Source: Candidatus Undinarchaeota archaeon
GTDB lineage: Archaea; SpSt-1190; JASMDC01
Direction: 5' to 3'
Length of the DNA: 22,895 nucleotides
Assembly (NCBI GenBank): GCA_964519305.1
Contig: CAZFHY010000020.1
Coordinates: forward strand, 58,666 to 81,560
Positions 1-22,895 of the stretch are shown piece after piece. Each line of letters opens with the position of its first letter. Within the stretch, counting starts at the first letter, position 1. Under the pieces are notes generated by a model. It was not told the DNA's origin. It did not search any database and saw nothing but the letters and a program-made list of their open reading frames with translations. Both the position numbers and the translations under genes were made by a program.

Positions 1-1
1 G

Positions 2-721
2 GAGGTCATCCGTGGTGTGGACGGGTTCGAGGACCACGGGAACCAGTCCGCCACCGCTCTTGTCACCCAGTCGCTCCAGGTGATGAAGGGCATGCACGAG
101 CACGACGTCTCCCGCACGGACGCCGTGGAGCTCCTACGCGCAGTGGACAGCTTCGAGGACCATGGTGTATCAGGGACTACTCTTGCTACCGAGACCGTCC
201 GCTTCATGCAGGGCATGGAGCAGTACGGGATTGGCCGCACCGACGCCGTGGAGCTCATGCGCGCCGTGGACGGGTTCGAGGACCACGGGAACCAGTCCGC
301 CACCTCCCTCGTTACCGAGACCGTCCGGCTCATGGAGGGTATGGAGAAGTACGACGTCTCGCGCTCGGACGCCATCGAGCTCATGCGCGCCGTGGACAGC
401 TACGAGGATCACGGCAACACATCCGGCACCGTCATGGTCACCGAGTCGGTCCGGCTCATGGAGGCCATGAAGGAGTACGGTGCCTCCCGCACAGACGCAG
501 TCGAGCTCATGCGCACTCTAGACAGCAGCGAGGAGCGTGGCTCGGACAGCGCAACATCCCTCACGGATTCCACCATCAAGCTCATCAAGGTCATGAAGGA
601 GACGGAAACCTCCCGTTCCAAGGCCATCGAGTACATCGGTATCGCCGACAAGGTCAACAGCAGCCAGAGCGCAATATCTCTCGCGGACGAGACGGTGAAG
701 GCGCTGCGGGCACGGGAGTGA
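2..721 (+). CDS. 5'-truncated 42-aa helical repeat protein (paralog of the downstream gene)
   Basis: The frame is open from the window edge (EVIRGVDGFEDHG...), so GTG at 17 is an internal Val. Five visible 41-42 aa units of the form VDxxEDHGxxSxTxLxTETVRLMxxMxxYxxSRxDAVELMRA, then a C-terminal cap. The stop TGA at 719-721 overlaps the next GTG start (GTGA). Confidence 0.85.
   Translation, partial: EVIRGVDGFEDHGNQSATALVTQSLQVMKGMHEHDVSRTDAVELLRAVDSFEDHGVSGTTLATETVRFMQGMEQYGIGRTDAVELMRAVDGFEDHGNQSATSLVTETVRLMEGMEKYDVSRSDAIELMRAVDSYEDHGNTSGTVMVTESVRLMEAMKEYGASRTDAVELMRTLDSSEERGSDSATSLTDSTIKLIKVMKETETSRSKAIEYIGIADKVNSSQSAISLADETVKALRARE
17..643 (+). repeat. Coding tandem repeat, 126-nt unit (one unit 123 nt), 5 visible copies
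   Basis: Units start at 17, 143, 266, 392 and 518. The 39 nt GTGGACGGGTTCGAGGACCACGGGAACCAGTCCGCCACC are identical at 17 and 266. Confidence 0.9.
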
Positions 722-7806: not shown

Positions 7807-8535
7807 TCAGTACCGCCCGTACACGTTCGCGTACCCGCCGCGGCCCGCGTAGTACGAGCTCCCCTGGTAGGCGGGGTACTGGTACCCGTAATAGCCGGCC
7901 TGGGCCATGGCGGTAGCTTGTTGCTGCTGCTGGAGAGCCGCCTGCTGTGCGATCGCCCTGCTCCTGGTGAAGAGCGCCAGACCCATGATGAGGACTATGA
8001 TGACCAGCACGATCCCGATGAGGAAGCTCATACTGGAACCTCCCCCGTCGTCCGTGCCACCGCCCGCCGTGGCGGTTGCCGTCGCGGTCGCGGTCCCGCT
8101 GGCCTCGGGACCTTCGGACGGTTCCGCGCTCGCCGTCGCCCCTTCGGCAACGCAGTCCTTCACGACGATGACTATCTCGCGTTTAACGGTGAACTGGGGC
8201 GAAATCGCAGGATAGGCCACGAGGGGGAGCGAGTACCGGCCCGGATCTAGTCCGAGGGGTGGTGTTAGATCGTACCGATGGTCCACGTACTCGGCTGCAC
8301 CCAAGGACACCTTGTAAGGGTTCTTCTTCTGGTAGAGTCCATGGGGATCATCGAGCTTGACAACGAAGATGGCAGGGTCCTTGAGGAGGCTCTCGTACTT
8401 GGCAACGACGCTGATCGTTTCTCCCCGACACCCCGACTGCTCGGGATTCTCAACAACGAGATTGAGGATCTCGAGGGAGGATCCCATGACGAGGAGGAGC
8501 GCAAGCACGACTGATCCCATCCTCTTCATCGACAT
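7807..8535 (-). CDS. Hypothetical single-pass membrane protein (signal peptide, Ig-like domain, Thr/Ala linker, TM, Gln/Tyr/Gly-rich tail)
   Basis: I placed the start at ATG 8535 (MSMKRMGSVVLALLLVMGSS, AAGGGGG SD upstream) rather than the track's 8592, which runs through a TATA box. Beta-rich domain with PGRYSL, linker GTATATATATAGGG, TM FLIGIVLVIIVLIMGLALF, tail QQQQQ...YYGYQYPAYQGSSYYAGRGGYANVYGRY. Confidence 0.75.
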   Translation of the reverse strand: MSMKRMGSVVLALLLVMGSSLEILNLVVENPEQSGCRGETISVVAKYESLLKDPAIFVVKLDDPHGLYQKKNPYKVSLGAAEYVDHRYDLTPPLGLDPGRYSLPLVAYPAISPQFTVKREIVIVVKDCVAEGATASAEPSEGPEASGTATATATATAGGGTDDGGGSSMSFLIGIVLVIIVLIMGLALFTRSRAIAQQAALQQQQQATAMAQAGYYGYQYPAYQGSSYYAGRGGYANVYGRY

Positions 8536-8574
8536 AGGAGCATTCCCCCTTATAGGTTGTGATAATGGAGTGTT

Positions 8575-8622
8575 GAAACTATAAATAGACACAGGCGGCT
8601 CGCCGTGAAACCTATTTAAACG
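8575..8622. promoter_or_regulatory. Divergent promoter region (two TATA boxes)
   Basis: Minus strand TTTATA at 8585-8580 for the leftward gene. Plus strand GAAACC-TATTTAAA at 8607-8620, about 31 nt before GTG 8646. Confidence 0.55.
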
Positions 8623-8645
8623 AAGTAAGCCACTCCAAATGCCCA

Positions 8646-9644
8646 GTGTACTCCCGGGTCCGTCTCGTCGGCGTCCTTCTTCTTATAGCGCTCACGCTCC
8701 CCTGTATTGCTGTTGGGAAGGAGGGCCGCGTCTATGATGCGTACAAGATGCGTATCGACGTGATGCCGAACGGCACATGTCGGGAGACCATCGACATCCA
8801 TCTTCGCAATACCGGCGACGAGCCGCTCCGCAACGCCTTCTTCACGGTAGTCCGTGACGTCCAGGATATCGAGGTCACCGGTATCGGCGAGGACATCTCA
8901 TGGACCGTCGCCGAGAACGAGTGGATCAAGCTCGTGAACATAACCTTCACCTATCCCGTGCTCCCGGACAAGGACCGTCATTATACCATCTCATTCACAA
9001 CCGATCAGTTCGTACGGCGGGAAAAGGACGACCTTGAGTTCCGAACGACCTATAATCCGTCAACGCCCATCACGGACTTCAGTCTCACCGTATCGCTCCC
9101 GTCCGGTTATGTCCTTCCCGTGGGCGGGATGGCGGCTCAGACGCATTCCGTTCTGTTCCCGCCAGCAGAGCTCAAGACCGACGGACAGCACCTTCTCCTC
9201 GTATGGAGCCGTACCAACGTTACTGCTGATGACAGCATTGGTGTGTTCGCCCGGTTCACACGCCCGAAGGAAGAGGTCAAAGAGGCATGCTATCCCATCA
9301 CCCCTCAAGGTATCGCGGTCGGTATCCTCCTTGGAGGGGTACTGTTCTTCTTTGGTAGATGGGCCACACAGAAACGGCCCTCCGTCCTATCTGTTTTCAC
9401 AGAGGACGAGCAGGCGGTCGTCGAGGTCTTGATACACGCCGGTGGGCGACTCAAACAGCGCGACCTGCTGGTAAAGCTCGACATCTCCAAGTCCAAGCTC
9501 AGTCGTCTTGTCATGGACCTCGAGTCACGGGGCGTGCTCCGCAAGGAGCGCATGGGCAACACGAACCGCCTCGTCCTCCGCGATGACCTCAAGCGCGCAC
9601 GGATCGATAAGAAGGAACATGAAGCGACCGATGTCGGTTCCTGA
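8646..9644 (+). CDS. Membrane-anchored winged-HTH regulator (COG2512-like: signal peptide, extracellular beta domain, TM, cytoplasmic HTH)
   Basis: N-terminal hydrophobic signal, beta-rich region, TM GIAVGILLGGVLFFFG, then TEDEQAVVEVL...GGRLKQRDL...ISKSKLSRLVMDLESRGVLRKERMGNTNRLVL, which is typical of archaeal membrane-associated HTH proteins. Confidence 0.85.
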   Translation: MYSRVRLVGVLLLIALTLPCIAVGKEGRVYDAYKMRIDVMPNGTCRETIDIHLRNTGDEPLRNAFFTVVRDVQDIEVTGIGEDISWTVAENEWIKLVNITFTYPVLPDKDRHYTISFTTDQFVRREKDDLEFRTTYNPSTPITDFSLTVSLPSGYVLPVGGMAAQTHSVLFPPAELKTDGQHLLLVWSRTNVTADDSIGVFARFTRPKEEVKEACYPITPQGIAVGILLGGVLFFFGRWATQKRPSVLSVFTEDEQAVVEVLIHAGGRLKQRDLLVKLDISKSKLSRLVMDLESRGVLRKERMGNTNRLVLRDDLKRARIDKKEHEATDVGS

Positions 9645-9658
9645 AAGCTATTTAATAC
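9644..9658 (+). promoter_or_regulatory. Putative BRE/TATA promoter for the 9690-14689 gene pair
   Basis: GAAAGC-TATTTAATA directly at and after the HTH gene stop. The spacing favours ATG 9690 (GAGGT SD) over 9672. Confidence 0.5.
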
Positions 9659-9689
9659 TTGGAGCCCGTAGATGCGTAGAGGTAGTGAT

Positions 9690-12600
9690 ATGAGTAGACA
9701 CGGTCTGCTGGTGTTCCGCGGTGCTACTGCACTGCTCCTCACACTCCTCTGTCTCGCCTCAGGATACAAAGGTTACCTCGTCGCGGACAGTATCCTTGAA
9801 TCGGTGGAGGTGCTAAATTTCAAGCACGCCATCATCTCTGTGGATTACGACATGAGCCCGTCGCCCGGATACGTGGACGAGCTCGATGAGCTGGCGCTCC
9901 AGACGCGCTTTGATTTGTTCGACCATACCTACTCGACGATCACGAAACAGGAGGAACTGGTGAGGTTCACCATGGGAGAGGTACCCCGTATCAGTTTCAA
10001 TACGTTCACGATCGAAGGAGAGAGCCTTGAGGTCGAGTTCACGCTCCACTACCGGCCAAAACAGTTCGACCTCATCCCTGGTGTGTTCACCTACGGCAGG
10101 AAGCTGCGTATCACATATCCTTCTCTCTATACATTACGGGTGGCCAACGTCACAGATCTCACACTGGAATCGAACTTCACCCTGGCAGGGCGCTTGGTGG
10201 ACATGGAGGCCTTCGCCCTAAAGTCGTCCGATCAGGGCGACCACATCGTTGGTGACACAATCGGCATCGAGAAGATAGGTGAGGTTTCCGGTAGCCTCAA
10301 GTTCTGCATCGCGGCACTCACGGAACGAGGAGATGACCGACCGGTCGCCAAGGCCTTTGGATCGTCCTGCGAGAAGCTCGTGATCCCCACCGATGGTTCC
10401 ATGGACGCCGTTCTCTATGATCTCCATATAATCGGCGTTCGCGGTGACGCCATGGGATATATCAAACAGGAGTTCAGGCTGGCCGAACCCCCCCTGGCGA
10501 TACGTCTCGTACCAGAGCGGACATCCGTCCGTCTCGGGACCGGTCTCGCACTGGACGTCCACCCGGCACAGCCTTTGGAAGGATGCACGGTGAACGTCTA
10601 TGATTCGTTCTGGACCAAGAAGAACACCCTGGACCTCCAGACATGCACGAACGTGGTCGTGGGTACGTCCACATCGTGGGCGCCCGGCACTTACCTCGTG
10701 GAAGTAGAGGGCTATCACCAGGGACTTGTCGGCCGTGCTACCGCCCGTTTCGAACTGATCGGGGTCGGCGGAATTATGCCCGCGGACACGAAGACCGACA
10801 AGGATGTGTACAAGGCGGGCGAGGATGTCTCACTCTATACTGACGCCCCGGGCGATATCTGCAGCGTCCAGGTTTTCAACCAAGACGGTATCAAAGTGAT
10901 GGAGGAGGAGTCGCTCGGATGTGGCAATGCCGAGCTAAGCCTCGATCCATCGCTCGATCCGGGGGCCTACACGATCCAGACCACGGCATACCGCGACAAT
11001 CAGAACGTCGGCGGTTCGGTTAACATGATCGAGGTTTCGGAGTGGCGACCCCAGCTCCGCACACCGCAGTCAGAAGTGTGCGAGGGCGGTTCCATGCATG
11101 TTCTCGGCGCCACCCTCCCGTGCATCCAAACAGGACAGACCTGCACTCCTTCATCCTCCGACATCCCACTTTGCCTCTGCTTCGATAAGGAGACAGGTGA
11201 CGTCCTTGACGTGTGCGAATACGGAAGATACTGTAGCCCTACCGATTGCACCGAGCAGCGTATCAAGAGCCCGTTCATCATCATCGAGACCGATGGAGAG
11301 TGCATGGCCAAGAGCGGTCTCCAGACGCTCTCATGCATCGACATCGGTGAGGTATGCATGGGTACCTGCGTCTGCCTCGGCAAGGATAAGAATCCCGAGG
11401 CCACCTGCGTTATCGGTGAGATGTGCGCCACTGAAGGATGTGCCCCGTCCAACCTCGAGTTCTCGCTCATCGATCTCGAACCCCGTCATATCAGATCGGA
11501 CGTGCTCCTGACGGATGGGGTTAACGTCATATGGCGCGGGAACATCAGGTACGAGGGGGCGCTTCTCGAGGAGGGAGCTCTCGCTGACCTCAATGTGAAC
11601 GCGTCACTCCACGTACTGGATGCCTCCAGTGCACCCACCATCAAGCGTGTGCACGACGATCAGGCCGGTGGCTGGACGATCGAGGCATCCTTCATAGCGG
11701 ACCTGCCTCCCGGAGAGTACGAGGTCTTCATCGTGATCGAGTACAAGGGCAACATCCATGTCATTCGTCGACCGTTCGAGGTATGGTACCCCGAGGACGA
11801 GTCGTTCCTGCGTGTGAGCCAGCACGATATCGAACCTGACAAGGTGCGTCCCAAAGACTTCGAGATCGGTTTCCCTCTACAAACCGATGTGGTCGTCCAG
11901 GATCTCAACGGAAGGTCCGTGGTGAACCTACCCAAGAAAGCCTTCAACATCACTTTCGGAGAGCTCGCACCCGCAAGCTTCACACCGACGTACAACAAGC
12001 TATCGGACCGCTGGCAGCTGTCGACGACGTTCATGGACACGCTCCTCTTCACCTGGGATGATGTACCTGGCCCAGACAATGGAAAAGTGCGGAGCTATCT
12101 GCGACGCACGTTCGGTGAGGACTGGATGGAGCATGCCGATATCTCCAAGAGCAGTGATGAACGGACCATCACCATGGCATCCGGTAACGATTGGCTCGAG
12201 TTCGCCCTGGACGGGAACAATATCAAGGCCACGGTCCGGACGGACGACGGAGAGGGCCATGAGCTTGCCGTCCGTGAAGAGATGGATCGCCTGATCGTAT
12301 ACACCGCACTTCCTACCGAACAAGCCATCTCCGTAGCGATCGAGCACCTCGGGCGCAGCGGGAACTCGAAGGAGCCAATCGAGGTGACGGACTACGTTCC
12401 ACTCGACTTCAGGATACAGCGAGCTAGTCCGGGTAACGACAATGAGCCGCTCATCCATTATCTGGCCGTGATGGGCTTCAATCTCGACATATTCCTTCAG
12501 ATCAAGGGGACCATCGATGTCTCCGAACGTAACTTCCATGTGTTCATCGGGGAACGGAACGTTACAGAGAACCTGGCCTATCTTGTCAGCACGACATCAG

Positions 12601-12770
12601 GTGTCAGGCTGCATCTTTCTGACATCTCTCTATGCCCTCATCCACCGAACGGCGGTAGCACGGTGGAGCTGCTCGTTGAGATCCATACCCCACAAGGAGT
12701 CATCGAATCGAAGCGGACGGACCTCCAAGTGAAGTCCAATCCCGGTCGATACGTGGTGGGATGCACATGA
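9690..12770 (+). CDS. Large secreted multidomain surface protein (~1026 aa; Ig/MG2-like domains, two Cys modules, inserted domain)
   Basis: Signal peptide (ATALLLTLLCLASG). Ig/MG2-like motifs TDKDVYKAGE, PGTYLVEV, PGAYTIQT and PPGEYEV. Duplicated Cys module at 11079-11441. No C-terminal TM. Confidence 0.8.
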   Translation: MSRHGLLVFRGATALLLTLLCLASGYKGYLVADSILESVEVLNFKHAIISVDYDMSPSPGYVDELDELALQTRFDLFDHTYSTITKQEELVRFTMGEVPRISFNTFTIEGESLEVEFTLHYRPKQFDLIPGVFTYGRKLRITYPSLYTLRVANVTDLTLESNFTLAGRLVDMEAFALKSSDQGDHIVGDTIGIEKIGEVSGSLKFCIAALTERGDDRPVAKAFGSSCEKLVIPTDGSMDAVLYDLHIIGVRGDAMGYIKQEFRLAEPPLAIRLVPERTSVRLGTGLALDVHPAQPLEGCTVNVYDSFWTKKNTLDLQTCTNVVVGTSTSWAPGTYLVEVEGYHQGLVGRATARFELIGVGGIMPADTKTDKDVYKAGEDVSLYTDAPGDICSVQVFNQDGIKVMEEESLGCGNAELSLDPSLDPGAYTIQTTAYRDNQNVGGSVNMIEVSEWRPQLRTPQSEVCEGGSMHVLGATLPCIQTGQTCTPSSSDIPLCLCFDKETGDVLDVCEYGRYCSPTDCTEQRIKSPFIIIETDGECMAKSGLQTLSCIDIGEVCMGTCVCLGKDKNPEATCVIGEMCATEGCAPSNLEFSLIDLEPRHIRSDVLLTDGVNVIWRGNIRYEGALLEEGALADLNVNASLHVLDASSAPTIKRVHDDQAGGWTIEASFIADLPPGEYEVFIVIEYKGNIHVIRRPFEVWYPEDESFLRVSQHDIEPDKVRPKDFEIGFPLQTDVVVQDLNGRSVVNLPKKAFNITFGELAPASFTPTYNKLSDRWQLSTTFMDTLLFTWDDVPGPDNGKVRSYLRRTFGEDWMEHADISKSSDERTITMASGNDWLEFALDGNNIKATVRTDDGEGHELAVREEMDRLIVYTALPTEQAISVAIEHLGRSGNSKEPIEVTDYVPLDFRIQRASPGNDNEPLIHYLAVMGFNLDIFLQIKGTIDVSERNFHVFIGERNVTENLAYLVSTTSGVRLHLSDISLCPHPPNGGSTVELLVEIHTPQGVIESKRTDLQVKSNPGRYVVGCT

Positions 12771-14689
12771 GCCGAAAAATGACACGAGGACAGATTGCCC
12801 TCTTTGGCATCATGGCCTTGGCTTTCGTGGTCATCTTCGTGCTCTATACGATGTTCTCTGGACAGAAGACGGAATCGGAGGTACGTCGACAGGAGATACA
12901 ATCGGAAACGGTCCGCAAGGAGCTCGAGTCCGTGCAGTCCTCTCTGGAGCGCTTCCTCGAAGCCGCTATCCACGAGGCAGCGGAGGAGATGGCCGCGCAC
13001 GGAGGTTATACCAAGGAGAACCATCCGCCGCTCAGCCATCTGGGCGTCCCCTACTGGTTCTATGAGGGGAATATCGTTAACATCCCGACAAACAAGGTCA
13101 TGGAACAGATGATGGTACAGGAGATCGAGCGCAATGTCAAGGACCGTGTCCTTGAACTGCAGAAGAGCCTGCGCAGGGACCTCTATTCCTTCGGGTTCCC
13201 AAAGGCGAACGTCACCCTCCTGGACAACTCAATCACGGCACGAATGAGCCTTCCGGTCCGCATCAGAGCAGAGGGTGAGGAAGTCAAGACCGATATCGAT
13301 TTCGATGTCAACGTACCGCTCCGGCTCAAGTTCCTGCACGACATCGCAGTATTCTATGTTCAGAGCTATATCGATGCCCGGACCATGGAGGACTCAATCT
13401 TCGACAGCATCACTTCAGACCCGCGCATCCCCAAACCGGGAGGTGACTGCTGTAAGGGCATCCCCTCATGCGATGCAGATGCCCGATACGAGATTAGTGT
13501 GATATCGACCGATGGGAATCCCCTCTCAAAGCATGGGGACCTCATCGAACCGTTCCGTGAGCATTCCCGACTGGCCGTGGCTAACGAGATGCGTCGTGTA
13601 AGGAAGGCCGACTTCAGTCCGGTTGAGACGTTCACCGGGATGGAACAAGCGGATATCGAGAAGGTCATGGAGTTCGTGGAGTGGACCTTCGACCTGTATG
13701 AGAACGAGTTCAAGTTCTCCTTCATCGCCAATGAGGACAAGCCTGATTACCGGTCCACCGACACAGTGCACTTCTTCAGGCTCGGACCCTTCGGCCTGTC
13801 ACCTTCGGGCGATTGTACGGGCGGGTACAAGATGAACTATTCCATCCACTTCCCCGTAAAGATCATCCTTCGTGATCTCCTGCCTTCTGCAAAAGTGGTC
13901 GGCGCCGCCGGGACATCGTCCGAGATCAAGCCACTGGAGTTCAAGTTCTACATGGAACCATATCTACAGAAACTGTCCGCAGCGACAAACGAGTCGGTCT
14001 CAGCACCCAAGTTCATCGAGGACCAGTGTCAGGGCGCCTGCGCCCTTACAGTGGACCTCGACCCCCCTGCGATGGAAGGGTTGCTCCGGATCGACTCCTG
14101 TCGCTATCCTTCTAACGATGTTGAAATGAGCTATTCCTCGGGAACTACCTGGGAGGGAGTCCCATGCGGCGTCCATGACATCGTGTTCGAGGCAGACGGG
14201 ACCGAGTACGCGAGATCGAGCCTGAAAGAGAAGATCGAGGCTTCAAGTCATGTCACCCTCCCCGTACGTAAGTTCGGCTCCATTTCGAGCCGTGTGATCA
14301 TGAAGAACTACGTCTACTGTGTGTCATCTCAGACAATTGATGAACGGGAACCGATACCTCTCGGCTATGTCGATGGGAGACCGCCGGCGTACATCGAAGT
14401 GTACCTCTTCCCCATGGACACTACCCTTGGGGACGTCGTCAGTGCAATAACCGACGAGGACGGAAAGATCGAATTCCCAACCGTGAACCCCGGTAAGTAC
14501 CTACTGCTCGCGGTCTCGTCCAAGGATAGCTCGGACCGCGCCATCTACTCGGTCCTTCCGAAGGGCATGATCCTCGATGTGGACGAGGGTACGAGCTCGC
14601 TCCCGGACATCGCGATGAAACCAATCACGGTGGAGCTCGACCGGAACGGGATATACCACAATGTAGCATCCCGTGATGAGAACTGTTGA
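12767..14689 (+). CDS. Class III (pilin-type) signal peptide protein, ~640 aa
   Basis: ATGA overlap with the upstream stop. MSRKMTRG/QIALFGIMALAFVVIFVLY fits the archaeal prepilin-peptidase pattern. Followed by a helical stalk, GGY...VPYW.YEG...IPT...ME, and a C-terminal prealbumin/carboxypeptidase-regulatory-like segment (TDEDGKIEF..VNPGKYLL). Confidence 0.75.
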   Translation: MSRKMTRGQIALFGIMALAFVVIFVLYTMFSGQKTESEVRRQEIQSETVRKELESVQSSLERFLEAAIHEAAEEMAAHGGYTKENHPPLSHLGVPYWFYEGNIVNIPTNKVMEQMMVQEIERNVKDRVLELQKSLRRDLYSFGFPKANVTLLDNSITARMSLPVRIRAEGEEVKTDIDFDVNVPLRLKFLHDIAVFYVQSYIDARTMEDSIFDSITSDPRIPKPGGDCCKGIPSCDADARYEISVISTDGNPLSKHGDLIEPFREHSRLAVANEMRRVRKADFSPVETFTGMEQADIEKVMEFVEWTFDLYENEFKFSFIANEDKPDYRSTDTVHFFRLGPFGLSPSGDCTGGYKMNYSIHFPVKIILRDLLPSAKVVGAAGTSSEIKPLEFKFYMEPYLQKLSAATNESVSAPKFIEDQCQGACALTVDLDPPAMEGLLRIDSCRYPSNDVEMSYSSGTTWEGVPCGVHDIVFEADGTEYARSSLKEKIEASSHVTLPVRKFGSISSRVIMKNYVYCVSSQTIDEREPIPLGYVDGRPPAYIEVYLFPMDTTLGDVVSAITDEDGKIEFPTVNPGKYLLLAVSSKDSSDRAIYSVLPKGMILDVDEGTSSLPDIAMKPITVELDRNGIYHNVASRDENC

Positions 14690-14873
14690 AACGGATATAT
14701 TTCCGCCTATTTGTACAATAGAGCAATAATTTTATTATTGGGACGACTTGGGACAACTTCCGCCTGATTAATGGGGCGAGCAATCTGAATGAACTATCGT
14801 GGCCCGTTGTCCCAAGCCGTTGCGAGAAATCGTTTTAAACGCCATAAGCAGAGTATATTACAGGGGTTTATCA
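14690..14873 (+). promoter_or_regulatory. AT-rich regulatory region upstream of the giant gene
   Basis: GAAATCG-TTTTAAA (TATA at 14833-14839), an AGGGGT SD before ATG 14874, inverted repeat CAATAAT-TTT-ATTATTG, and direct repeats (see findings). Confidence 0.55.
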
Positions 14874-17800
14874 ATGGGATTCAGTACCAATCGAACAAGA
14901 CATACCTACGCACTATTCATGGCGTTCGTGCTCTGTGCGCTTCTCACATTGGCGACGAGCACCGCAGAGGACGACATGGGTGCGTTCATTTGTGAAGAGA
15001 CAATCGAAGACACGCATCTGAGTATCTTCTGCTATCATACGGAGACCGCCTCTACGATCGGTATCTTCGTCAAGGTGGACGACGCATTTATCGCGGATTT
15101 CCTTTGCGATAAATCCAAGTTAACGTCCGACGAGACTCCAGAAGCGGATTATTGCTGGAGTTCCACGATCGGGAGAGCCACCGTAAAGATACCATTCACT
15201 GCGTACGACGGTAAGCTCGGTAAGCTGAAACTATTTGGCGACCGTGCGGGGAACGCCCCCGACTCTTCCTTGAGCAATCTCAAGACCTATTCATTCGATA
15301 TTACGAAACCAGAGGAAACTGCGGAAGAAGAGGAGACAACCCCTGAATCCCCGACACCCCCGCAGAACATTGAAGCCTATACGAGCAGGTGCACGGACAA
15401 GGTCTTCATCGGTAAGGAATTCACCTATACGTCCGGTAATCCCACTGAAAGGGAAAGAGCAAAGGAGGAAGCCCTTCAATATGCCAGGGACCACTGCCCC
15501 GACTACTGCAAGAAGGGACGACTGGCGGTTTTCGATTACGGGACCGATCCCCCCTACTTCAAGGGACTTCAGGCCTGCTACGACCCCCGTATCTGGGAAC
15601 CCGCTGGCGGCATTGACAGGGACGACTCGAAGGGGACGGATGACGCGGCCCTCGCCGAGGTCAGTGCAAAAGAGATAGAGAGTTGTAAGGCTCTATGCGA
15701 GCAGGTCTATTCAGACAAGGCTGCTACATTGTTCACGCCTTTGATCATGAACTTCCAGCGAAAGGAGGATGTCAACGGCCCCATCAGGTTCGGGTGCTTG
15801 TGCCAGTTCCGATCATGCTCCTGCTGTCACATCCCCGGTAACGATAACTACCCCTATCGCTGGGTCAAGGATGTGGGCACATGCACCGGGGACACTTCAA
15901 ATAAATACGGCCCCGGCCACACCGTCGATCCCAATCTCTGTACGGACGCACCTTTCCACGAGGATAATGAAGGGACATGCGCATTGCCCCGTGCTGTGAA
16001 GCCCGACTGTCTCCACTGCTGCAACAAGGGGACCTCGGATGATCCTGTGTACGACTGGTTGCCTACATCATGTGCTGCAGATGGGTACACGGATGCCGCA
16101 TCCAGGATGGACTGCTGCGAGACCCAATCCAGTGACGGTCTGTCGTGCACCACGTGGAAAGATGCCTCGGGATGCAACGTCATCGAGGATCCTGACACCT
16201 ACACCCTCAAAGGGAAGGTATGTTGCAGGGCCCACGGTGACACCTATGCATGGCTGGACATCGATCCGGACGCCGGTATCACCTGCCCGCTATCGGAACG
16301 GGCTGCAGATCAATCATTATGTGGTCCCAGTGACGACAGTATGGCGTGCTGTGTGCTCAGGAAGGACGACAACACGGCCGATTTCCAATTAATGAGCCGA
16401 GAGGAATGCGCTACCAAGCTCGAGGGCGAGACGGGGGTCATGTTCTCCTCGGAGTACTGTGAGCTAGACATCACGGGTACATGTCAGGGTGACCAGGACC
16501 TGCCGAAGGTCTATCTAGCGGCCATTTATGCCGACGACTGCAAGGACGGCTCTGACGAGCGCAAGATAGAGTGTTATCAGGGTGGATCCGGTTCTACCTG
16601 CGAGACAGTTGAGGGTCAGAACCTCGCCTCCAAGGTGGATCCCGACGAGAAGGCCGAGCTCCGCATCACAGGTGGTAAGAAGGATGATAACGATTGTCAG
16701 GTCACGCTGGTCATGAGCTTGACCGAGCCATCAGATAATGCGGTCCCGGAGTCAGGTATCTGCGATGGTGCCCGCACGTTCGGTGGACACTGTTACAAGA
16801 TGACCGATAAGCTGGAATGGCCCGCTGCGAAATCGAAGTGCGAGGCGTGGAACGCTCATCTCGTGACCATCGACGATGCGCTGGAGAACGAGTTCATCAA
16901 GAAGACGTTCGCTGAGAACCTCTGGATCGGTTACAATGACCGTGAGCAAGAAGGGCGATATGTCTGGACTACGGATCCGGCGACCGGTGACCTACCCGCA
17001 GTCTGTAGCGACGGCTACTTCTACAATGGTCACTGCTACAAACCCATATCGAACACCGATTGGGACGACGCAAAGACCACGTGCGAAGCATGGGGTGGTT
17101 ACCTCGCGACCATCGAGGATGCGGACGAGAACAAGTATATCATGGACCAGTTCAATCAATATACATACAAGTGGATCGGCCTGAACGACAAGACCACTGA
17201 GGGCACATGGGCATGGTCACACGGTGCATCAGATTATCGGAACTGGAAGAACGGCGAACCGAACGACCATGATGGCAACGAAGACTGCATTGAGTTAAAG
17301 GGAGCGGGCAAGTGGAACGACGCGAAGTGCACGAACAAGCATGGTGCGATCTGCGAGTCCGACGGACCCCCGAACACGAACAGGCTCTATTCGAACTGGA
17401 ACAATCACGAGCCGAACAACTGGGGACGCAACGAGGACTGTAGCCAGATCTATACCTCCGGTCTCTGGAACGACAACAATTGCGACCATGATTTCAAGGC
17501 TCTCTGCGAGTCGGAGGATGGTGGTGATCCCGGCTATGTCCTGCGGGTGTTCTTCGCGAACGAAGATGTGAAGGCCGATCAGTACGATGTCGATCCATAC
17601 ACCATGACGATCGCCTATCTCAGGCTCCTGGAGCACCGGCCATCCGCGGAGAAAGGATGCCTCGGGTGCAAGGTCAAGCATGTATACGATGGCGGATTCA
17701 GCGATCCGAACGATGATGATACGACCACCAATGGTATGAAGTATGAAGTGTGCATCTCACCGGATCCCGATCTAACCAGTGGTTGTGACAGGGATGCCTG

Positions 17801-20800
17801 TATCACGCAACTCGAGGGCTTCCTTGGTGATGAGCTCATCAGTATCGAAGCTGGAGCCGCGGACAACCTCAGGATATTCAAGGTCAAGAGCTCGATCCTT
17901 AAAATCGGCGAATGTTCCTTGGACCAGGACGTCATTGGCGAGGATATAGACCACATCACGATAACTGACTATGAAGGTGATGCCGAGCAGAAGACGATCG
18001 CCAACAGGCTCGACAAGATCAAGTGCAAAGAGGGTGGCATCCCGGCCAAGAACAACTTCGCGGACTACCTCAAGGAAGTGAAGACCTTCCAGGAAGGTGC
18101 CCACGAGTTCTACACCGACCTGCACGCCAACCTCATCACGATGCTGGACGCTCTGGAGAAGCAGTGCGACTCATGCAACACTGCGCTCACGGATTTCCTT
18201 GGCACTGGTTACACTGCCTCTGAGAGCACGGGGCAGCAGCAAATCCCCTCGGGTGTTAAGATCAATATCGACGATGTGGAGATCGAGTTCACCTTCGGCA
18301 CGGCCGTCGACCTGGACGACCTGCCAGACAAGGACTCCGAGGACAACGACTTCAACTGCAAGACGGCATTGAAGAACAAGGGCTATCAGAACTTAGTGTT
18401 CTTCCGGACCAAGAACACGAACGATGTCAAGGGATACATGAACAAGAGCAGTACATCAATTCACATCGACCTTGCTCCGGGTGGCACTGATTCGGGCGTC
18501 GCTTCAACCGGTTGCGACTTCACGCGTGACTCCTATGCCTGGATCACATCCGATCCCCCCAGTAGCACCTCCACAGATGTCCCGTCGGTCTGCAGCCCCG
18601 GTGAGTTCTGTGCATGCGATGCGGACCTCGGTCTGGAGACCTATATCACAGAGGACTTCGTAGCCAGTGACGCGTTCGGCCCCGGACTCTGTCATAGGGG
18701 CGTCCAGGAGATCTGCCTAAAGGACAGCCTGACCTTTTGCCCCGCACGGGAAAGCGATATCACGGCCCGAAGTGAGGAGCTAGCCACTGCGATGGGATGC
18801 CCCGTCTGCATCCAGATACCGTGCGTTGCAGGAGTGAAAGTATGGGATGGAAATACAGGCAGCTTGACCTGTGATTCGAACGAGATGAACGAGGAGGACG
18901 ACGGTACAGAAGGGAGTTGTTGTGACACTGATGCTACCGATCCTGACAAGTACGTCTGTTCAGCGCCCGCTGTACCTGACGCGTCCAAGGACCTTGGGTA
19001 CGCAGGAGCGACGAGCAACTGCGCCCTCCCGACCGTTACCGATGACTGTCGTAAGTGCACAAATCCCTGTGACGACGGCTGCTGCGGCTACTGCACCAAC
19101 GATGAGACCGATACGAAGTCCGGTGTGCTCGAGGTCAAGTACCGCACCAACGTCGCCATCGTTCCCGCCAAGCTCGTGGAATGTCAGCAGCAGGTCTCCG
19201 ACCTCAAGGACCTGTGCACGGTTGACGGCGCCGAGGACCTGTACGACGGGATCAAGGCCGGCCCGTGTCGCACGCGGGACACCGTCCAGAACGTCGTCAC
19301 CACGCTCAAGAGCCTCATGGACAAGCTTGCGGAGGGGATCGTCGCCATCGACGCCCTCATCGTGGAGTACGACGGATCCACGACAGAGGATGGGAACGTA
19401 GTGAGCGATAAACTCTCTACCCTGAATGAAAAAATTTCCGATATCGCTAACACCGGCGCATCCGATTTGTTCCGCAAGAACCTCAAGAACTCGGTCGCCA
19501 TGGTCGACAGGATCATCACGGACACTGATGACAAGAACGAGCAGGGTACGGTGACACAGTACCAGGGCATCGAGTCGATCGGGGCAGGGACCGCGGACTG
19601 GAAGTTCAAGGACGAATGCCCCGGCATCATCGACCGGTACCTAGAGCTCGGCTACTCGGGCGACTGTGCTTACAAACCCAAATACCATCTGCCCGAGGAG
19701 CGCGACGCGCTAATCGAACCGTTCTATGAGAATGTACTACAGTACCTCACTGGCCAGCCTGCGAGTTCAGGCCCTCAGCCCTATGCCCGGGACTCCCGGT
19801 GCATCATCGACAGCACCATCACCAGCGACAAGCCGATCGGCCGGTGCGAGATGGGCGGAACCGAGGACAAGACCATCGACGACCAGCAGTTCGATGACTG
19901 GGGCACGAAGCAGGACACTGCGCTGAGCAAGCTCAACGCTATCGACTCTTCGACCACACCAATCCAAGACAACACGCTCCTCTACGAGATCCACCAGTCG
20001 TGCATGTCCTATACGACGACGGGCGGTCAGACCATCACACCTGACACGGACGACGACGTCGATACCGACACGGACACCGACACGGATACTGATACGGACA
20101 CAGATACGGATACGGACACCACCACGATGGGTGTCGGCCAAGGGTGCAACAGGAACAGCGACTGCCCCTCGGGCAACTGTATTAACAGCATCTGTTGCGC
20201 GAACGGTAAGTACTGCTGTCTTTTCGACAGTCAATGCTCGATGTTCGGTACCGACGCCAAGTGCGATTCGAACACATTCTACTGTCGTATGACCGTCGGT
20301 GGCAGTGCATGTCCGTGCGCCGCGAAGATGGACGATGGTGGCGACTGTGACAATAACGATGAGTGCAAGAGCTCGAACTGTAGGAACAACATCTGCTGCA
20401 AGCGTCACGAGCAGTGCTGCGATGGCCCGCAACACTGCGCGACGTCCTCCGGACGGATATGTGGTGGGGATAACTACTGTATAACCGATCCGGACTACAT
20501 CGAGGACGGTTCCTTAGACAACGGTGATCCTTGCACGGACCCGAACCACTGCTTCAGCCGTAACTGCAAGAACGGTATTTGTTGCTCGACCCTCGGTGTA
20601 TGCTGCTCGTCGAACTCCCACTGCCTCGAGAACCTGGGCGAGGTGTGCGACCAGTCGCTCCATTTCTGCATCACTCCCGAACCGACGCCTCCTGAAGAGG
20701 ACCCGAGCACCGATGAGTACTGCGCTGCGTTCTGTCGCAACTCGTGCGATCCCAGCTACAGCGAAGGCCGGTGCCATGTAGAGCTCGGGTACTGCGTCTG

Positions 20801-22763
20801 CAACATAGGTTTCGGGTGGAAGGGTACGAGCCAGAAGTGCGATCCTCCAGAACTGCCCGCTGACGTGAAGAACAAGATGCTCGCGTGCTGCAACAACCTC
20901 TTTGACTTCGATCCTGACACGCCGGGCCTGCCGATCTTCGATGTCCCATCCAATCCATCGTGCGCAAGCGCCGGGGTCTTCGGTGATGGGAAGGTGCACT
21001 TCGACAAGTGCAGATCCAAGTACTCGGAGCTGAACAATTACTGCTGTTTCCAGGGCGAGAGGGAACTACCGCTCACCGAGAAGTGCTACAACATGGACCA
21101 GTACGCGACATGCAGAAGGGCCTGTCAGGACATCTACCCGTCGAACGTGGACGCGTGCGAGACCGCATGCAAGGAAGCGAACATCGACTGCGAGAAGGCC
21201 TGCCTCGAACCGCCCATCCCACAGGACACTGCAACCCGCCTCAAGTGCATGAAGGGCGGGATCACCAGCATGCCTGATTGTGGGGCCAACGATAAGGTGT
21301 ACAATAAGATAATCGGGTGCTTCCAACGTAGCCCCAGCACGTATTCCTTCGACGAGAACGTCAAGTGCGCACAAGCCATGAAAGGGATGCTACCGCGGTT
21401 CACCATATCGAAACTGGGGGTCTACAAGGACGATATCGCCCAGACCACGGTCTATGGCGGTGACGTGGCGGCCGTGAAGGCCGACATCACCAATGCGGGC
21501 GCTCTGTTCTTCAGTGGACGGGTCACGTTCGGAGTGATCGTACTGCCACCATGTCCCGAAGAAGGATGCAACGAGGAGGACTACATCGAGTACTTCACCC
21601 TCGGTACGAACCCGATGGACAACACGATCGACCTCCTCCCTGCGGCCACGGTCGCTCTGGAGAGCGAGCCATTCGACATTGATCCGTCCTGGATAGGTAA
21701 CGAGATATGGGTCATACTGGGCGTTCGTGACATTTCAGGTGCCATCGGTGATTATGACTCGGCGACGGGCGTCAAAGTGCTCAAGATGGGCGTCATCGCA
21801 CCAACGGATGCGTTCTTCAACGATGAGCGGATCATCACAGCTTACCCGTTCCAGGAAGTGACCGGTCACGTGAAGCTCGTGTCCGAGTACTTCCCGCTCA
21901 AGGCCGAGGTCTACCTGACCGACACGAACAACCGCGAGATCGAGGGCACTCGTGTAGCGCACGAGTTCTCGGCCAAGATCTCGGATGAGGTCATCATAAA
22001 GACCAATGCGTTCACGGTGCCCAAAGAGTACGCCTACTTCGGCAACATCCTGCGCATCGGGTTCGAGGCCTTCGACAAGGAAGACCAGCTCGTGGCAAAG
22101 TCCATCCTCTCCACACCGGTGATCTGCGAGACATGTCCGGAAGACTACATCAACGTCCAGATGCAGTATCCCGACGCCTACCTGAAGGTCGAGAACCCAG
22201 AGCTCAAGGTGACCAGCGCGAACTTCATCGACGCGGACGGCGAGCACATCCCAGCGACAGGTCTCTACCAGAGACGGGACGTCAGGGCCCAGGTCACGGT
22301 GCGCAACTCTGTGGACGTGGTCTTCGATGGGACCGTGAAGGTGACCGTACTGGACGAGTCGGGGACCGCGATAACGGCCACCACAGCGGACCTCAAGGAC
22401 AATACGCTGGCCAAGGACGGCAAGTACACGATCACGACCGACGCCTTCCTTGCCGAGGAGGGACACTCGTACAAGACTCTGGTGCACGCGATCGCGGACG
22501 ATGTGGACTGGTTCAAGCGGCAGCTGTCGCGGATCACCTATCCGTACGCGGTGCTGGACGTCCAGGACCTATCCACTGTTCAGGGTGAGGGTCCCAAGGA
22601 CTACACCATCACCTATGCACTGGGGACCTGTGTGCTGCGTGTTGAGTGCACCGCTTGTCTGCCCACCTGCGAGATCCTGGTGGACCAGCCGACGTGCACG
22701 TTCCGCTCAGAGGGCGTGTGCGATCCGCCCGGCGGCACCTGCTCCTGCATAGCGGCAGCGTAA
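14874..22763 (+). CDS. Giant secreted Cys-rich protein with C-type lectin domains (~2629 aa), putative adhesin
   Basis: Uninterrupted 7.9-kb ORF. ATG 14874 gives a signal peptide (RTRHTYALFMAFVLCALLTLATSTA); the track start at GTG 14799 lies upstream of the TATA. Contains CTLD motifs (GHCY, WIG, EPN, WND), a DT tract, Cys repeats and C-terminal beta-sandwich-like domains. Confidence 0.9.
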   Translation: MGFSTNRTRHTYALFMAFVLCALLTLATSTAEDDMGAFICEETIEDTHLSIFCYHTETASTIGIFVKVDDAFIADFLCDKSKLTSDETPEADYCWSSTIGRATVKIPFTAYDGKLGKLKLFGDRAGNAPDSSLSNLKTYSFDITKPEETAEEEETTPESPTPPQNIEAYTSRCTDKVFIGKEFTYTSGNPTERERAKEEALQYARDHCPDYCKKGRLAVFDYGTDPPYFKGLQACYDPRIWEPAGGIDRDDSKGTDDAALAEVSAKEIESCKALCEQVYSDKAATLFTPLIMNFQRKEDVNGPIRFGCLCQFRSCSCCHIPGNDNYPYRWVKDVGTCTGDTSNKYGPGHTVDPNLCTDAPFHEDNEGTCALPRAVKPDCLHCCNKGTSDDPVYDWLPTSCAADGYTDAASRMDCCETQSSDGLSCTTWKDASGCNVIEDPDTYTLKGKVCCRAHGDTYAWLDIDPDAGITCPLSERAADQSLCGPSDDSMACCVLRKDDNTADFQLMSREECATKLEGETGVMFSSEYCELDITGTCQGDQDLPKVYLAAIYADDCKDGSDERKIECYQGGSGSTCETVEGQNLASKVDPDEKAELRITGGKKDDNDCQVTLVMSLTEPSDNAVPESGICDGARTFGGHCYKMTDKLEWPAAKSKCEAWNAHLVTIDDALENEFIKKTFAENLWIGYNDREQEGRYVWTTDPATGDLPAVCSDGYFYNGHCYKPISNTDWDDAKTTCEAWGGYLATIEDADENKYIMDQFNQYTYKWIGLNDKTTEGTWAWSHGASDYRNWKNGEPNDHDGNEDCIELKGAGKWNDAKCTNKHGAICESDGPPNTNRLYSNWNNHEPNNWGRNEDCSQIYTSGLWNDNNCDHDFKALCESEDGGDPGYVLRVFFANEDVKADQYDVDPYTMTIAYLRLLEHRPSAEKGCLGCKVKHVYDGGFSDPNDDDTTTNGMKYEVCISPDPDLTSGCDRDACITQLEGFLGDELISIEAGAADNLRIFKVKSSILKIGECSLDQDVIGEDIDHITITDYEGDAEQKTIANRLDKIKCKEGGIPAKNNFADYLKEVKTFQEGAHEFYTDLHANLITMLDALEKQCDSCNTALTDFLGTGYTASESTGQQQIPSGVKINIDDVEIEFTFGTAVDLDDLPDKDSEDNDFNCKTALKNKGYQNLVFFRTKNTNDVKGYMNKSSTSIHIDLAPGGTDSGVASTGCDFTRDSYAWITSDPPSSTSTDVPSVCSPGEFCACDADLGLETYITEDFVASDAFGPGLCHRGVQEICLKDSLTFCPARESDITARSEELATAMGCPVCIQIPCVAGVKVWDGNTGSLTCDSNEMNEEDDGTEGSCCDTDATDPDKYVCSAPAVPDASKDLGYAGATSNCALPTVTDDCRKCTNPCDDGCCGYCTNDETDTKSGVLEVKYRTNVAIVPAKLVECQQQVSDLKDLCTVDGAEDLYDGIKAGPCRTRDTVQNVVTTLKSLMDKLAEGIVAIDALIVEYDGSTTEDGNVVSDKLSTLNEKISDIANTGASDLFRKNLKNSVAMVDRIITDTDDKNEQGTVTQYQGIESIGAGTADWKFKDECPGIIDRYLELGYSGDCAYKPKYHLPEERDALIEPFYENVLQYLTGQPASSGPQPYARDSRCIIDSTITSDKPIGRCEMGGTEDKTIDDQQFDDWGTKQDTALSKLNAIDSSTTPIQDNTLLYEIHQSCMSYTTTGGQTITPDTDDDVDTDTDTDTDTDTDTDTDTDTTTMGVGQGCNRNSDCPSGNCINSICCANGKYCCLFDSQCSMFGTDAKCDSNTFYCRMTVGGSACPCAAKMDDGGDCDNNDECKSSNCRNNICCKRHEQCCDGPQHCATSSGRICGGDNYCITDPDYIEDGSLDNGDPCTDPNHCFSRNCKNGICCSTLGVCCSSNSHCLENLGEVCDQSLHFCITPEPTPPEEDPSTDEYCAAFCRNSCDPSYSEGRCHVELGYCVCNIGFGWKGTSQKCDPPELPADVKNKMLACCNNLFDFDPDTPGLPIFDVPSNPSCASAGVFGDGKVHFDKCRSKYSELNNYCCFQGERELPLTEKCYNMDQYATCRRACQDIYPSNVDACETACKEANIDCEKACLEPPIPQDTATRLKCMKGGITSMPDCGANDKVYNKIIGCFQRSPSTYSFDENVKCAQAMKGMLPRFTISKLGVYKDDIAQTTVYGGDVAAVKADITNAGALFFSGRVTFGVIVLPPCPEEGCNEEDYIEYFTLGTNPMDNTIDLLPAATVALESEPFDIDPSWIGNEIWVILGVRDISGAIGDYDSATGVKVLKMGVIAPTDAFFNDERIITAYPFQEVTGHVKLVSEYFPLKAEVYLTDTNNREIEGTRVAHEFSAKISDEVIIKTNAFTVPKEYAYFGNILRIGFEAFDKEDQLVAKSILSTPVICETCPEDYINVQMQYPDAYLKVENPELKVTSANFIDADGEHIPATGLYQRRDVRAQVTVRNSVDVVFDGTVKVTVLDESGTAITATTADLKDNTLAKDGKYTITTDAFLAEEGHSYKTLVHAIADDVDWFKRQLSRITYPYAVLDVQDLSTVQGEGPKDYTITYALGTCVLRVECTACLPTCEILVDQPTCTFRSEGVCDPPGGTCSCIAAA
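16761..17510 (+). other. Two C-type lectin domains, one nested in the other
   Basis: Outer N-half at 16761-16976, complete inner CTLD at 17004-17357, outer C-half at 17388-17510. Confidence 0.9.
20061..20120 (+). repeat. (Asp-Thr)10 coding microsatellite (GAYACN)
   Basis: Ten hexamers GAY-ACN with varied third codon positions. Confidence 0.95.
20145..20669 (+). repeat. Three 10-Cys protein repeats
   Basis: Pattern C-x5-C-x4-C-x4-CC-x5-CC-x5-C-x7/8-C-x5/6-C occurs three times (CNRNSDCPSGNC..., CDNNDECKSSNC..., CTDPNHCFSRNC...). Confidence 0.9.
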
Positions 22764-22788
22764 GAAAGGGGTCATATGAAGGGGGTTC

Positions 22789-22821
22789 CCTCCGGGCGGG
22801 CCGACAGGGCCCGTCCGGGGG
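22789..22821 (+). terminator. GC-rich stem-loop downstream of the giant gene (terminator or 3' stability element)
   Basis: CCTCCGGGCGGGCC-GACAG-GGCCCGTCCGGGGG forms a 14-bp stem with two G-U pairs, 25 nt after the stop. There is no U-tract on the plus strand. Confidence 0.4.
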
Positions 22822-22895
22822 ATGACAATAAATAGTTCTCGGTACAGAGCGAGTCCGAGAAGTGCCCGTCCATGCCGGGTGTTGAGCGCACCCCA

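Follow-up and report, generated by a model that had tools for sequence, protein, structure and literature searches.

The locus and its gene layout

We analysed a stretch of 22,895 nucleotides (nt) from a Candidatus Undinarchaeota archaeon (assembly GCA_964519305.1, here genome G000; contig C20, positions 58666-81560), referred to below as the window, the end of which is also the end of the contig. Four open reading frames (ORFs), P1 to P4, occupy positions 8646-22763 of the window. Our main subjects are P2 and P3, a gene pair that recurs about 20-fold in this genome, and P4, a giant secreted protein with lectin domains that is encoded behind the pair.

8646-9644, + strand: P1, 332 amino acids (aa), GTG start
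9690-12770 (alternative start 9672), + strand: P2, 1026 aa (1032 aa from 9672)
12767-14689 (alternative start 12761), + strand: P3, 640 aa (642 aa from 12761)
14874-22763 (alternative GTG start 14799), + strand: P4, 2629 aa (2654 aa from 14799)
12767-12770, + strand: P2/P3 ATGA overlap, with the P3 ATG at 12767 lying on the P2 stop TGA 12768-12770

A first-pass annotation of the window had described four co-directional envelope genes, the second and third of them coupled, and this layout is confirmed: all four lie on the + strand, and the ATGA shared by the P2 stop and the P3 start is, on the face of the sequence, a translational coupling. It had also given the 1026-aa and 2629-aa proteins signal peptides and no C-terminal anchor, which agrees with our hydropathy scans. 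P2 and P3 each have a single hydrophobic segment, located at the N-terminus ('MTRGQIALFGIMALAFVVIFVLYTMF' in P3), P4 starts with a signal, shows a weak patch further inside and lacks a transmembrane (TM) segment at the C-terminus, and P1 has an N-terminal signal and one TM segment at residues 217-241; the signals of P2 and P4 are of the Sec type. GC content across the four genes is 0.53-0.59, compared with ~0.63 upstream.

A congener, G001, carries P1-P4 in identical order, with identities of 84, 91, 92 and 76%, respectively, and also keeps the flanks of the four genes (a membrane protein, a haloacid dehalogenase (HAD) hydrolase and PdxS). Because G001 retains genes, order and flanks, the four-gene arrangement is beyond chance. 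Past the giant gene, G001 has convergent genes encoding a DsbA/thioredoxin-like 700-aa protein and a deoxycytidine monophosphate (dCMP) deaminase, and the cluster therefore stops at the giant.

A P2-P3 pair repeated across the genome

Paralogues of P2 and P3 were counted in G000 (3.6 Mb) by tblastn and phmmer, which gave 22 P2-like and 21 P3-like ORFs; a P3 search over 41 genomes returned matches only in G000 (30) and G001 (29). The immediate neighbour of the P3 gene is a P2 gene in 21 of 21 cases, and the two genes overlap in all 20 P2-P3 pairs (by 1-140 nt), with P2 preceding P3 in 15 and following it in 5. Distances among the P2 paralogues are correlated with those among the P3 paralogues (Mantel r = 0.85; reached by 0 of 2000 permutations). 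TATA-like A/T elements precede the free-standing pairs at a distance of 25-45 nt, and pairs that lie behind a giant gene abut its stop codon. That P2 and P3 form a functional pair is supported by these data. Because the genome holds ~20 paralogous P2-P3 cassettes, the locus in the window is not a singular four-gene apparatus.

P3, a class III signal protein of a wide family

12767-12865, + strand: P3 class-III-type signal, MSRKMT-RG/Q followed by a 22-residue hydrophobic stretch

The N-terminus of P3, MSRKMTRG|QIALFGIMALAFVVIFVLYTMF, fits the definition of a class III (type IV prepilin-like) signal, as had been called for the 640-aa protein in the first-pass annotation, and the RGQ core is retained among its relatives. 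In an alignment of 12 P3 sequences (A1), R7 and Q9 are invariant and G8 nearly so, alongside eight invariant Cys. The pattern [KR][GA][QS] plus a hydrophobic run was found by regular expression in 18 of the 21 P3 paralogues, or 20 when two read by eye are added. An alignment of 28 remote full-length relatives (A3) has 'KRGQVTxFII' in common, and hhalign relates A1 to A3 with a probability of 99.9 (E 9e-36, 475 columns).

An exhaustive profile search with P3 returned 1643 representatives at E ≤0.001, part of which match only the common sandwich domain, with 90 at ≤1e-10 and 31 at ≤1e-30. Other relatives form two groups, one of ~600-700 aa that matches over the whole length and one of ~250 aa that matches positions 5-200 only; those inspected have K[KR]GQ at the N-terminus with a hydrophobic run after it. 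Pfam gave P3 only a sub-threshold CarboxypepD_reg match, left 24 of 27 remote relatives without any match and, at E up to 1, found no family common to more than two of the 28 A3 members, while NCBIfam had no match for P2, P3 or the P3 relatives. Only unnamed archaeal clusters were returned for P3 by the ESM Atlas (score 0.94), and P3 profiles found nothing significant among PDB sequences (best E 0.69 with A1). As far as sequence comparison goes, P3 is a member of a wide family of KRGQ-signal proteins from small archaeal genomes for which Pfam and NCBIfam hold no model.

The predicted structure of P3 (predicted local distance difference test (pLDDT) 75.2; predicted template modelling score (pTM) 0.57) consists of a helix at residues 7-77, a conserved alpha/beta N-domain that extends to ~220 and has four strands at 140-183, a middle domain, and two beta-sandwiches at 424-500 and 501-628. 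By Foldseek and VIA-align, residues 501-628 match a transthyretin-like/CnaB stalk domain (5aq0_B; Z 9.7, root-mean-square deviation (rmsd) 1.6 over 81) and the GBS52 minor pilin (Z 8.9), and a P3 sandwich matches SlaB (8qox_B) with Z 8.4 and rmsd 2.5 over 87 residues. In the model, then, the C-terminal half of P3 resembles the stalk domains of adhesins and Gram-positive pilins.

The A3 profile places the family in 5 of 61 genomes (G000, G001, G024, G035 and G058) and in 0 of the 15 small genomes of the same class. At four loci in G058 and G035 (GC 0.31-0.40), five of six P3-like genes abut or overlap a gene for a Sec-signal protein of 519-1734 aa.

P2 and its predicted contact with P3

P2 had no Pfam match. 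Its model (pLDDT 79.5, pTM 0.47) is all-beta throughout and includes a cysteine-knot module at ~460-590, which suggests a secreted all-beta string of immunoglobulin (Ig)/macroglobulin-like sandwiches. The top Foldseek match was the neck of the grappling-hook protein GhpA (9flp_A, 1.9e-15), with alpha-2-macroglobulin and complement proteins and titin, also tandem-sandwich proteins, among the further matches; because template modelling (TM)-scores were ≤0.16, P2 shares only the tandem-sandwich architecture with them. The best match of the P2 profile (A2) among PDB sequences was an S-layer Sap domain at 0.028, which is not significant, and the best ESM Atlas score for P2, 0.76, was not meaningful. 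An insert of ~90-100 aa at P2 ~785-875 (window 12040-12310) is found in the window's P2 and its G001 orthologue only; it is missing from the other 20 paralogues and is modelled at pLDDT <50.

A complex was predicted between residues 633-1026 (part of P2) and residues 35-640 of P3. Of 157 solved complexes in the calibration, 116 reached the mark used with this tool, as did 2 of 215 mismatched pairs; scores ≤0.60 took in 18 of the 157 solved complexes and both passing mismatches. The P2-P3 prediction gave weak support for a contact, with a median interaction prediction score from aligned errors (ipSAE) of 0.47 (runs 0.47, 0.00 and 0.56), a best score of 0.00 among three controls, partner pLDDT of at least 71 and run agreement of at least 0%. 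An intermolecular P2-P3 disulfide through a conserved C-terminal Cys was also considered and dropped, as the conserved Cys counts permit intramolecular pairing.

Giants with a shared C-terminal module and varied payloads

16761-17510, + strand: nested C-type lectin domains (CTLDs), P4 residues ~630-879, in which a complete inner CTLD, inserted in a loop, splits the outer CTLD
20694-22760, + strand: conserved C-terminal module of the giant (C-module), P4 residues 1941-2629, ending in a Cys-rich tail
G000 C19:1070-7414, C10:99461-105112, C12:99634-106695 and C6:32554-38532: giants with the C-module plus Peptidase_M23 and/or NlpC/P60

P4 is a secreted giant with 159 Cys. A jackhmmer search with its last 689 residues recovered 25 ORFs in G000 with a C-terminal module of 650-690 aa, 14 of which are contiguous with P2/P3 genes, compared with a chance expectation of <1 by rough estimate. 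Across 8 cassettes, distances between C-modules run parallel to the P3 distances (r = 0.55, 17 of 5000 permutations) and to the P2 distances (r = 0.59, 9 of 5000), and the same three sister pairs recur in giant, P2 and P3. We therefore conclude that whole cassettes were duplicated together, which speaks for a shared history and not for binding. The C-module profile (A4) found nothing significant among PDB sequences (best 0.23), and its relation to the P2 profile by hhalign (probability 46) is confined to an Ig-like stretch. The data support P4 as a lectin-bearing surface protein that belongs evolutionarily with the P2-P3 pair.

A further giant of 2638 aa (G000 C1:22048-29964) has a P3-like ectodomain (P3 ~53-504) near its N-terminus in addition to the C-module and is thereby a natural fusion joining the P3 and giant families.

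The lectin assignment of P4 comes from Pfam Lectin_C (PF00059), matched at 1.3e-36 with 126 bits against a cut-off of 22.6 in three stretches; the excised lectin segment scores 133.7 bits, and no family besides Lectin_C was found by Pfam when P4 was split in five pieces. Both nested CTLDs carry EPN (P4 795 and 846) and WND (814 and 865), which are kept in G001; we take EPN to be the mannose-type Ca-dependent carbohydrate site motif and WND a Ca/carbohydrate site motif. Identity of P4 to its G001 counterpart is lowest at residues 1301-1400 (0.42), followed by 701-800 (0.55), within the inner lectin domain, and is highest at residues 2301-2629 (0.87-0.97). Direct repeats of ≥40 nt are absent from window 8000-22895. 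A diversity-generating retroelement acting on the lectin was considered and rejected for the window, the rest of the genome not having been searched for a template repeat or reverse transcriptase. Further along, at P4 ~1690-1710 (window 19900-20000), P4 has a linker of perfect (Asp-Thr)n, 'DTDTDTDTDTDTDTDTD', and behind it three repeats of ~60 aa, rich in Cys, that recur in several other secreted proteins of the genome.

Among 22 large proteins of these loci, Pfam found M23 in three giants, NlpC/P60 in two and FG-GAP in one, and 14 of the 22 had no match at 1e-4. One neighbour that has no C-module combines Discoidin, TSP3 and a binary-toxin-B-type Ca-binding domain. This archaeon is not expected to have peptidoglycan in its own wall, where murein hydrolases would be useless; on secreted archaeal proteins, such enzymes would point to bacterial targets.

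P1 and promoter-like elements

8612-8619, + strand: TATA-like octamer CTATTTAA, 34 nt before the P1 start
9648-9655, + strand: second CTATTTAA octamer, 42 nt before the P2 ATG at 9690

Exactly two copies of the octamer CTATTTAA lie in the window, compared with 0.07 expected and two or more in 0 of 100 shuffles, and the second element implies a separate P2-P3 transcript. P4 is preceded by an A/T-rich gap of 110 nt. Because of the two octamers and this gap, we infer three transcription units, P1, P2-P3 and P4, rather than one operon.

In P1, Pfam matched the DUF7343 winged helix at residues 253-311 (1.2e-14; 54.3 bits against a cut-off of 27.6) and the DUF2207 N-terminal domain (2.2e-5; 25.2 bits against 24.4), with weak Sta1/Lrs14-type matches in addition. 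Both domains are over their cut-offs and the winged helix-turn-helix is on the cytoplasmic side, as in a membrane-bound winged-helix regulator. P1 is thus a candidate membrane one-component regulator with an extracytoplasmic DUF2207 N-terminal domain, a TM segment and a cytoplasmic winged helix (DUF7343/MarR-like). G000 has 11-15 P1-like genes, depending on threshold. A P1-like gene flanks 4 of the 21 P3 genes, and 7 of the 11 P1-like genes that were mapped adjoin P2/P3 genes or genes for other large secreted proteins, as read from the map.

Type IV filament machinery

C2:1045-10170, one strand: C2 locus, in which genes for an ATPase, a platform-like protein, P2 and P3 are packed together; kept in G001

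No T2SSE or Peptidase_A24 match lies inside the window, the nearest being a sub-threshold T2SSE match ~25 kb upstream on the contig. The genome as a whole encodes four Peptidase_A24 matches over the Pfam cut-off, six T2SSE matches over the cut-off, T2SSF genes beside three of the ATPases, and canonical pilin-like proteins of the form 'RGQAALEFLMTYGW'. The ATPase of the C2 locus (767 aa) matches T2SSE at 1.7e-14 (~54 bits) and the FlaI model at 1.9e-30, below the cut-off of the latter; the platform-like protein (726 aa, polytopic) is related by jackhmmer to ORFs with a T2SSF match and has no match to Pfam T2SSF itself.

ATPases of the C2 type occur in 35 of 61 genomes, including all 15 of the same class at 38-57% identity. 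In G058 (C7) and G035 (C1), a C2-type ATPase (~760 aa) and platform (~730 aa) are not followed by a P3-like gene. These divergent FlaI/TadA-like proteins may make up a separate kind of type 4 filament system in small-genome archaea. All four other P3-holding genomes (G001, G024, G035 and G058) have Peptidase_A24 and T2SSE matches, a count that has no matched negative set. The machinery-linked C2 pair was also considered as the founder copy of the expansion, an idea that found no support: a single quick FastTree with remote homologues as its root places the pair inside the crown group, with the C25 copy, then the C27/C6 copies, branching earlier.

Two other large proteins of G000, of 1242 aa (C20:20641-24369) and 999 aa (C14:62959-65958), have canonical pilin-type N-termini ('RRGQGSMEFLMTYGW...' and 'RKGQASLEFLMSYGW...'). 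These, too, are large class-III-signal proteins; they belong to another family, and one of them is on the window's own contig.

Range and organism

In the set of 61 genomes, P2 (profile A2) was found in only G000 and G001, with one weak partial match in G034, and the C-module (A4) in only G000 and G001. Word-index protein searches, which say little about family range, returned only close orthologues from a few related populations (4 matches for P3, 5 for A2 and 3 for A4); the giant orthologues retain Lectin_C, and NCBI names two of the orthologue proteins 'Candidatus Undinarchaeales archaeon'. Window positions 8500-16500 are present in 8 DNA runs from two marine/seawater metagenome studies, possibly the source of the genome.

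G000 comprises 3.63 Mb in 42 contigs at ~60% GC, with a completeness of 99.8% and a contamination of 4.3%. The 15 sampled genomes of the same class measure 0.6-1.2 Mb, and the part of PMC7414124 consulted gives described Undinarchaeota a mean of 0.66 Mbp and ~38-43% GC. G000 is either a size outlier in its class or a mis-binned or mis-placed genome. Our literature searches listed no description of a large-genome Undinarchaeon and, on giant proteins, C-type lectins and the cell surface of DPANN archaea, no paper on a system of P2, P3 and giants.

A proposed lineage-specific surface-display cassette

We read the window as one copy of a lineage-specific, ~20-fold expanded surface-display cassette composed of a P3 stalk, P2 and a giant payload, and put the probability of this reading at about 0.55. 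The archaeon probably uses such cassettes to hold on to the surfaces of other cells and, with further copies, to digest those surfaces. In the mechanism that we propose, P3 would be cut after Gly by one of the Peptidase_A24 enzymes of the genome and held by its hydrophobic N-terminal helix; it would then stay in the membrane or be raised by a type-IV-filament machine. If raised, it would be comparable to the subunits of a bindosome or to a minor/tip pilin; with its 640 aa, it would not be a major filament subunit. Its beta-sandwich stalk would point outward, and P2, as a secreted anchorless Ig-like string, would bind P3 and lengthen the scaffold. Secreted through Sec, P4 would dock by the C-module that it has in common with 24 other giants, with its N-terminal region as the working part. 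The payload in the window would act through its nested EPN lectins, binding mannose/N-acetylglucosamine-type glycans on another cell in a Ca-dependent manner, and the M23, NlpC/P60 and FG-GAP payloads of its sisters would point to contact with, and attack on, bacterial envelopes. P1, transcribed separately, may regulate nearby surface genes and would not be a fixed component of the cassette.

Several results weigh against this reading. Co-duplication of neighbouring genes is also expected without physical interaction, one of the P2-P3 complex runs scored 0.00 and the interface was not reported, and no RNA runs containing window 8500-16500 were found. The association with giants is partial: 11 of the 25 C-module giants are not beside a pair, and a C-module giant directly flanks only 8 of the 21 P3 genes. 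As to filament machinery, an ATPase and a platform share an operon with only 1 of the 20 P2-P3 pairs, none of ATPase, platform and peptidase is encoded in the window, and neither ATPase nor platform was found in the flanks retrieved for four remote loci with P3-like genes; moreover, the C2-type ATPase does not depend on P3, because it occurs in 35 of 61 genomes and the P3 family in 5. Nor did the searches assign the P3 N-domain to a fold: no pilin matched residues 46-185, for which the best match (Z 6.7) was noise from unrelated proteins, and the best A3 match among PDB sequences was a 70-aa fimbrial protein at a non-significant 0.039. Finally, when large secreted proteins encoded next to remote P3-like genes were compared with A2 by hhalign, the three examined showed no detectable homology to P2 (probabilities 0.1-0.6).

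The sparse linkage to machinery speaks for a plain membrane-tethered complex, in which the P3 N-terminus is a signal-anchor, cut or uncut, that works without a filament machine, and P2-P3 is a membrane-rooted envelope stalk. Machinery is linked to a single pair in 20, and remote P3-like loci have no ATPase or platform within their flanks; P3 also has no acidic residue at +5, and type 4 filament systems are sparse in DPANN according to the portion of the survey PMC13705601 that we draw on. Against it, the basic residue, Gly/Ala and Gln before the hydrophobic run are strictly conserved in distant homologues, a prepilin-peptidase signature that a simple anchor would not need, Peptidase_A24 and T2SSE are present in all four other P3-holding genomes tested, and the C2-type operon unites ATPase, platform, P2 and P3. 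We consider the plain tether somewhat unlikely. A variable envelope coat, with P2-P3 as alternative S-layer-like pairs (cf. SlaA/SlaB) expressed in turn and the giants as independent neighbours, would account for the large number of paralogues, all preceded by TATA-like elements of their own, and could draw on the match of the P3 sandwich to the SlaB domain 8qox_B (Z 8.4) and on the weak profile match of P2 to S-layer Sap domains (0.028). These matches, however, are only to a common beta-sandwich, SlaB is anchored at its C-terminus and P3 at its N-terminus, the giants are co-duplicated with the pairs, and lectin and murein-hydrolase payloads are not coat functions, so that we think a coat quite improbable.

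We are just as doubtful of the proposal that goes back to the first-pass annotation, a single dedicated four-gene apparatus in which P3, as part of a type IV pilus or at its tip, tethers P2 and P4 while P1 acts as its dedicated sensor-regulator. The congener does keep the same genes and order, the promoter-like octamer CTATTTAA is common to P1 and P2, and the class III signal is matched by pilus machinery elsewhere in the genome, where prepilin peptidase, ATPase and platform are all present although, as that annotation observed for ATPase and peptidase, none is in the window; the refuting conditions named in that annotation thus did not come true. What tells against it is that the pair is ~20-fold paralogous and occurs with or without giants and helix-turn-helix genes, and that a pilin fold of P3 has not been demonstrated. 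The role of P1 as controller loosens in the same way, since a P1-like gene is beside only 4 of the 21 P3 genes, P1 is preceded by a promoter-like element of its own, and most mapped relatives (7 of 11) adjoin P2/P3 or other large secreted proteins. Tethering of P2 by P3 is weakly supported by the complex prediction (median ipSAE 0.47 over controls at 0.00, with one run at 0.00). An export device, with P2-P3 as a pseudopilus-like piston tip that pushes giants through the envelope, analogous to type II secretion, instead of displaying them, would fit giants that have no anchors and an ATPase-platform-P2-P3 operon that has no obvious major pilin. Most pairs are far from any ATPase, nothing separates export from display, and we know of no archaeal precedent for such a piston; we regard it as very improbable.

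The surface-display reading can be extended to a polymorphic modular cell-contact weapon system of a large-genome relative of the tiny-genome Undinarchaeia, in which ~25 giants with interchangeable N-terminal payloads (EPN lectins, M23 and NlpC/P60 murein hydrolases, integrin-like repeats) dock by the C-module on cognate P2-P3 stalks that are anchored by a prepilin-type signal and serviced by the conserved FlaI/TadA-like ATPase and platform of the class. This extension is unlikely on present evidence; if true, it would amount to an undescribed archaeal organelle for seizing and opening bacterial cells, and would suggest predation or aggressive epibiosis. Under the surface-display reading itself, the P3 family, P2 and the C-module of the giants are three Pfam-less families that form one repeated, co-duplicating unit, and in small-genome archaea, about whose host-contact machinery little is known, P3-family proteins recur as partners of large secreted proteins. 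The cassette would offer a testable molecular way into the question of how bacterial cells are gripped, and possibly breached, by DPANN-related archaea, and its paralogues a natural cognate-pair set for tests of docking specificity.

Comparison with known systems

We read the system as a new form of class-III-signal surface display, and the closest kinds (modular minor pilins, the bindosome and adhesin-bearing archaeal type 4 filament loci) are not homologous here. The modular minor pilins of Streptococcus sanguinis (PilB; PilC with PilA) are alike in fusing a class III signal/pilin helix to a large adhesive module and in lectin-type glycan binding through a complex of such subunits (PMC8179133, PMC9934059). 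No sequence or structural homology to P3 was found for these pilins, and the present system differs in that the lectin is on a separate Sec-secreted giant, in being archaeal and in having ~20 sets as opposed to one. In the bindosome, class-III-signal substrate-binding proteins are assembled by a dedicated ATPase and platform. The Sulfolobales bindosome resembles our system in its large non-filament surface proteins with prepilin-type signals on a type-4-filament-like core, as outlined in a section of PMC13705601. The payload proposed here is for adhesion or hydrolysis and not solute binding, P3 has no substrate-binding fold, and the match of the C2 ATPase to the BasE model is weak (5.6e-11) and well short of the cut-off. 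Where archaeal type 4 filament loci encode Ig-fold adhesin/hook-like proteins, a multi-Ig secreted protein is likewise combined with class III proteins, an ATPase and a platform, and the same section of PMC13705601 describes adhesin-type loci as rare in DPANN.

The neck of the Aureispira grappling hook GhpA (9flp_A) was the top Foldseek match of P2; at TM-scores ≤0.16 this likeness is of tandem-sandwich architecture only, and P2 is restricted to this genus among the 61 genomes. In bacterial type IV pili, the tip adhesin PilY1/PilC is held by minor pilins, an arrangement comparable to a ~1000-aa Sec-secreted anchorless protein held by class-III-signal proteins. The P2 model, however, is all beta-sandwich with no beta-propeller noted, and PilY1 is absent among the Foldseek matches listed for the whole-protein search. 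SlaA/SlaB of Sulfolobales (PDB 8qox) also form a two-gene unit of a large outer protein and a beta-sandwich/long-helix stalk; the anchor of SlaB is a TM segment at the C-terminus, that of P3 a class III segment at the N-terminus, which sets P3 outside that type, and the likeness is restricted to one sandwich domain. The SPEARE-type giants of Nanohaloarchaeota are said to be secreted multi-kilodalton proteins in which adhesion domains and hydrolytic domains together serve contact with a host. They are likened here by description only, and the giants of G000 differ in their family-specific C-module and P2-P3 pairs.

Neighbouring genes

Between P1 and the upstream part of the window, divergent from P1, a gene on the - strand (window 7807-8592) encodes a 261-aa membrane protein with a Thr/Ala-rich linker and a Gln/Tyr/Gly-rich cytoplasmic tail; a Pfam scan gave no match, and the protein is 88% conserved in G001. 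At the start of the window, positions 1-2409 (+ strand) encode a protein of >800 aa, open at its 5' end, with repeats of ~37 aa ('VDRYEDTGGQT...VKLMDAM') and weak sub-threshold Pfam matches to phage tape-measure and minor-tail families. A frame at 2-721, which overlaps this ORF, encodes a similar repeat.

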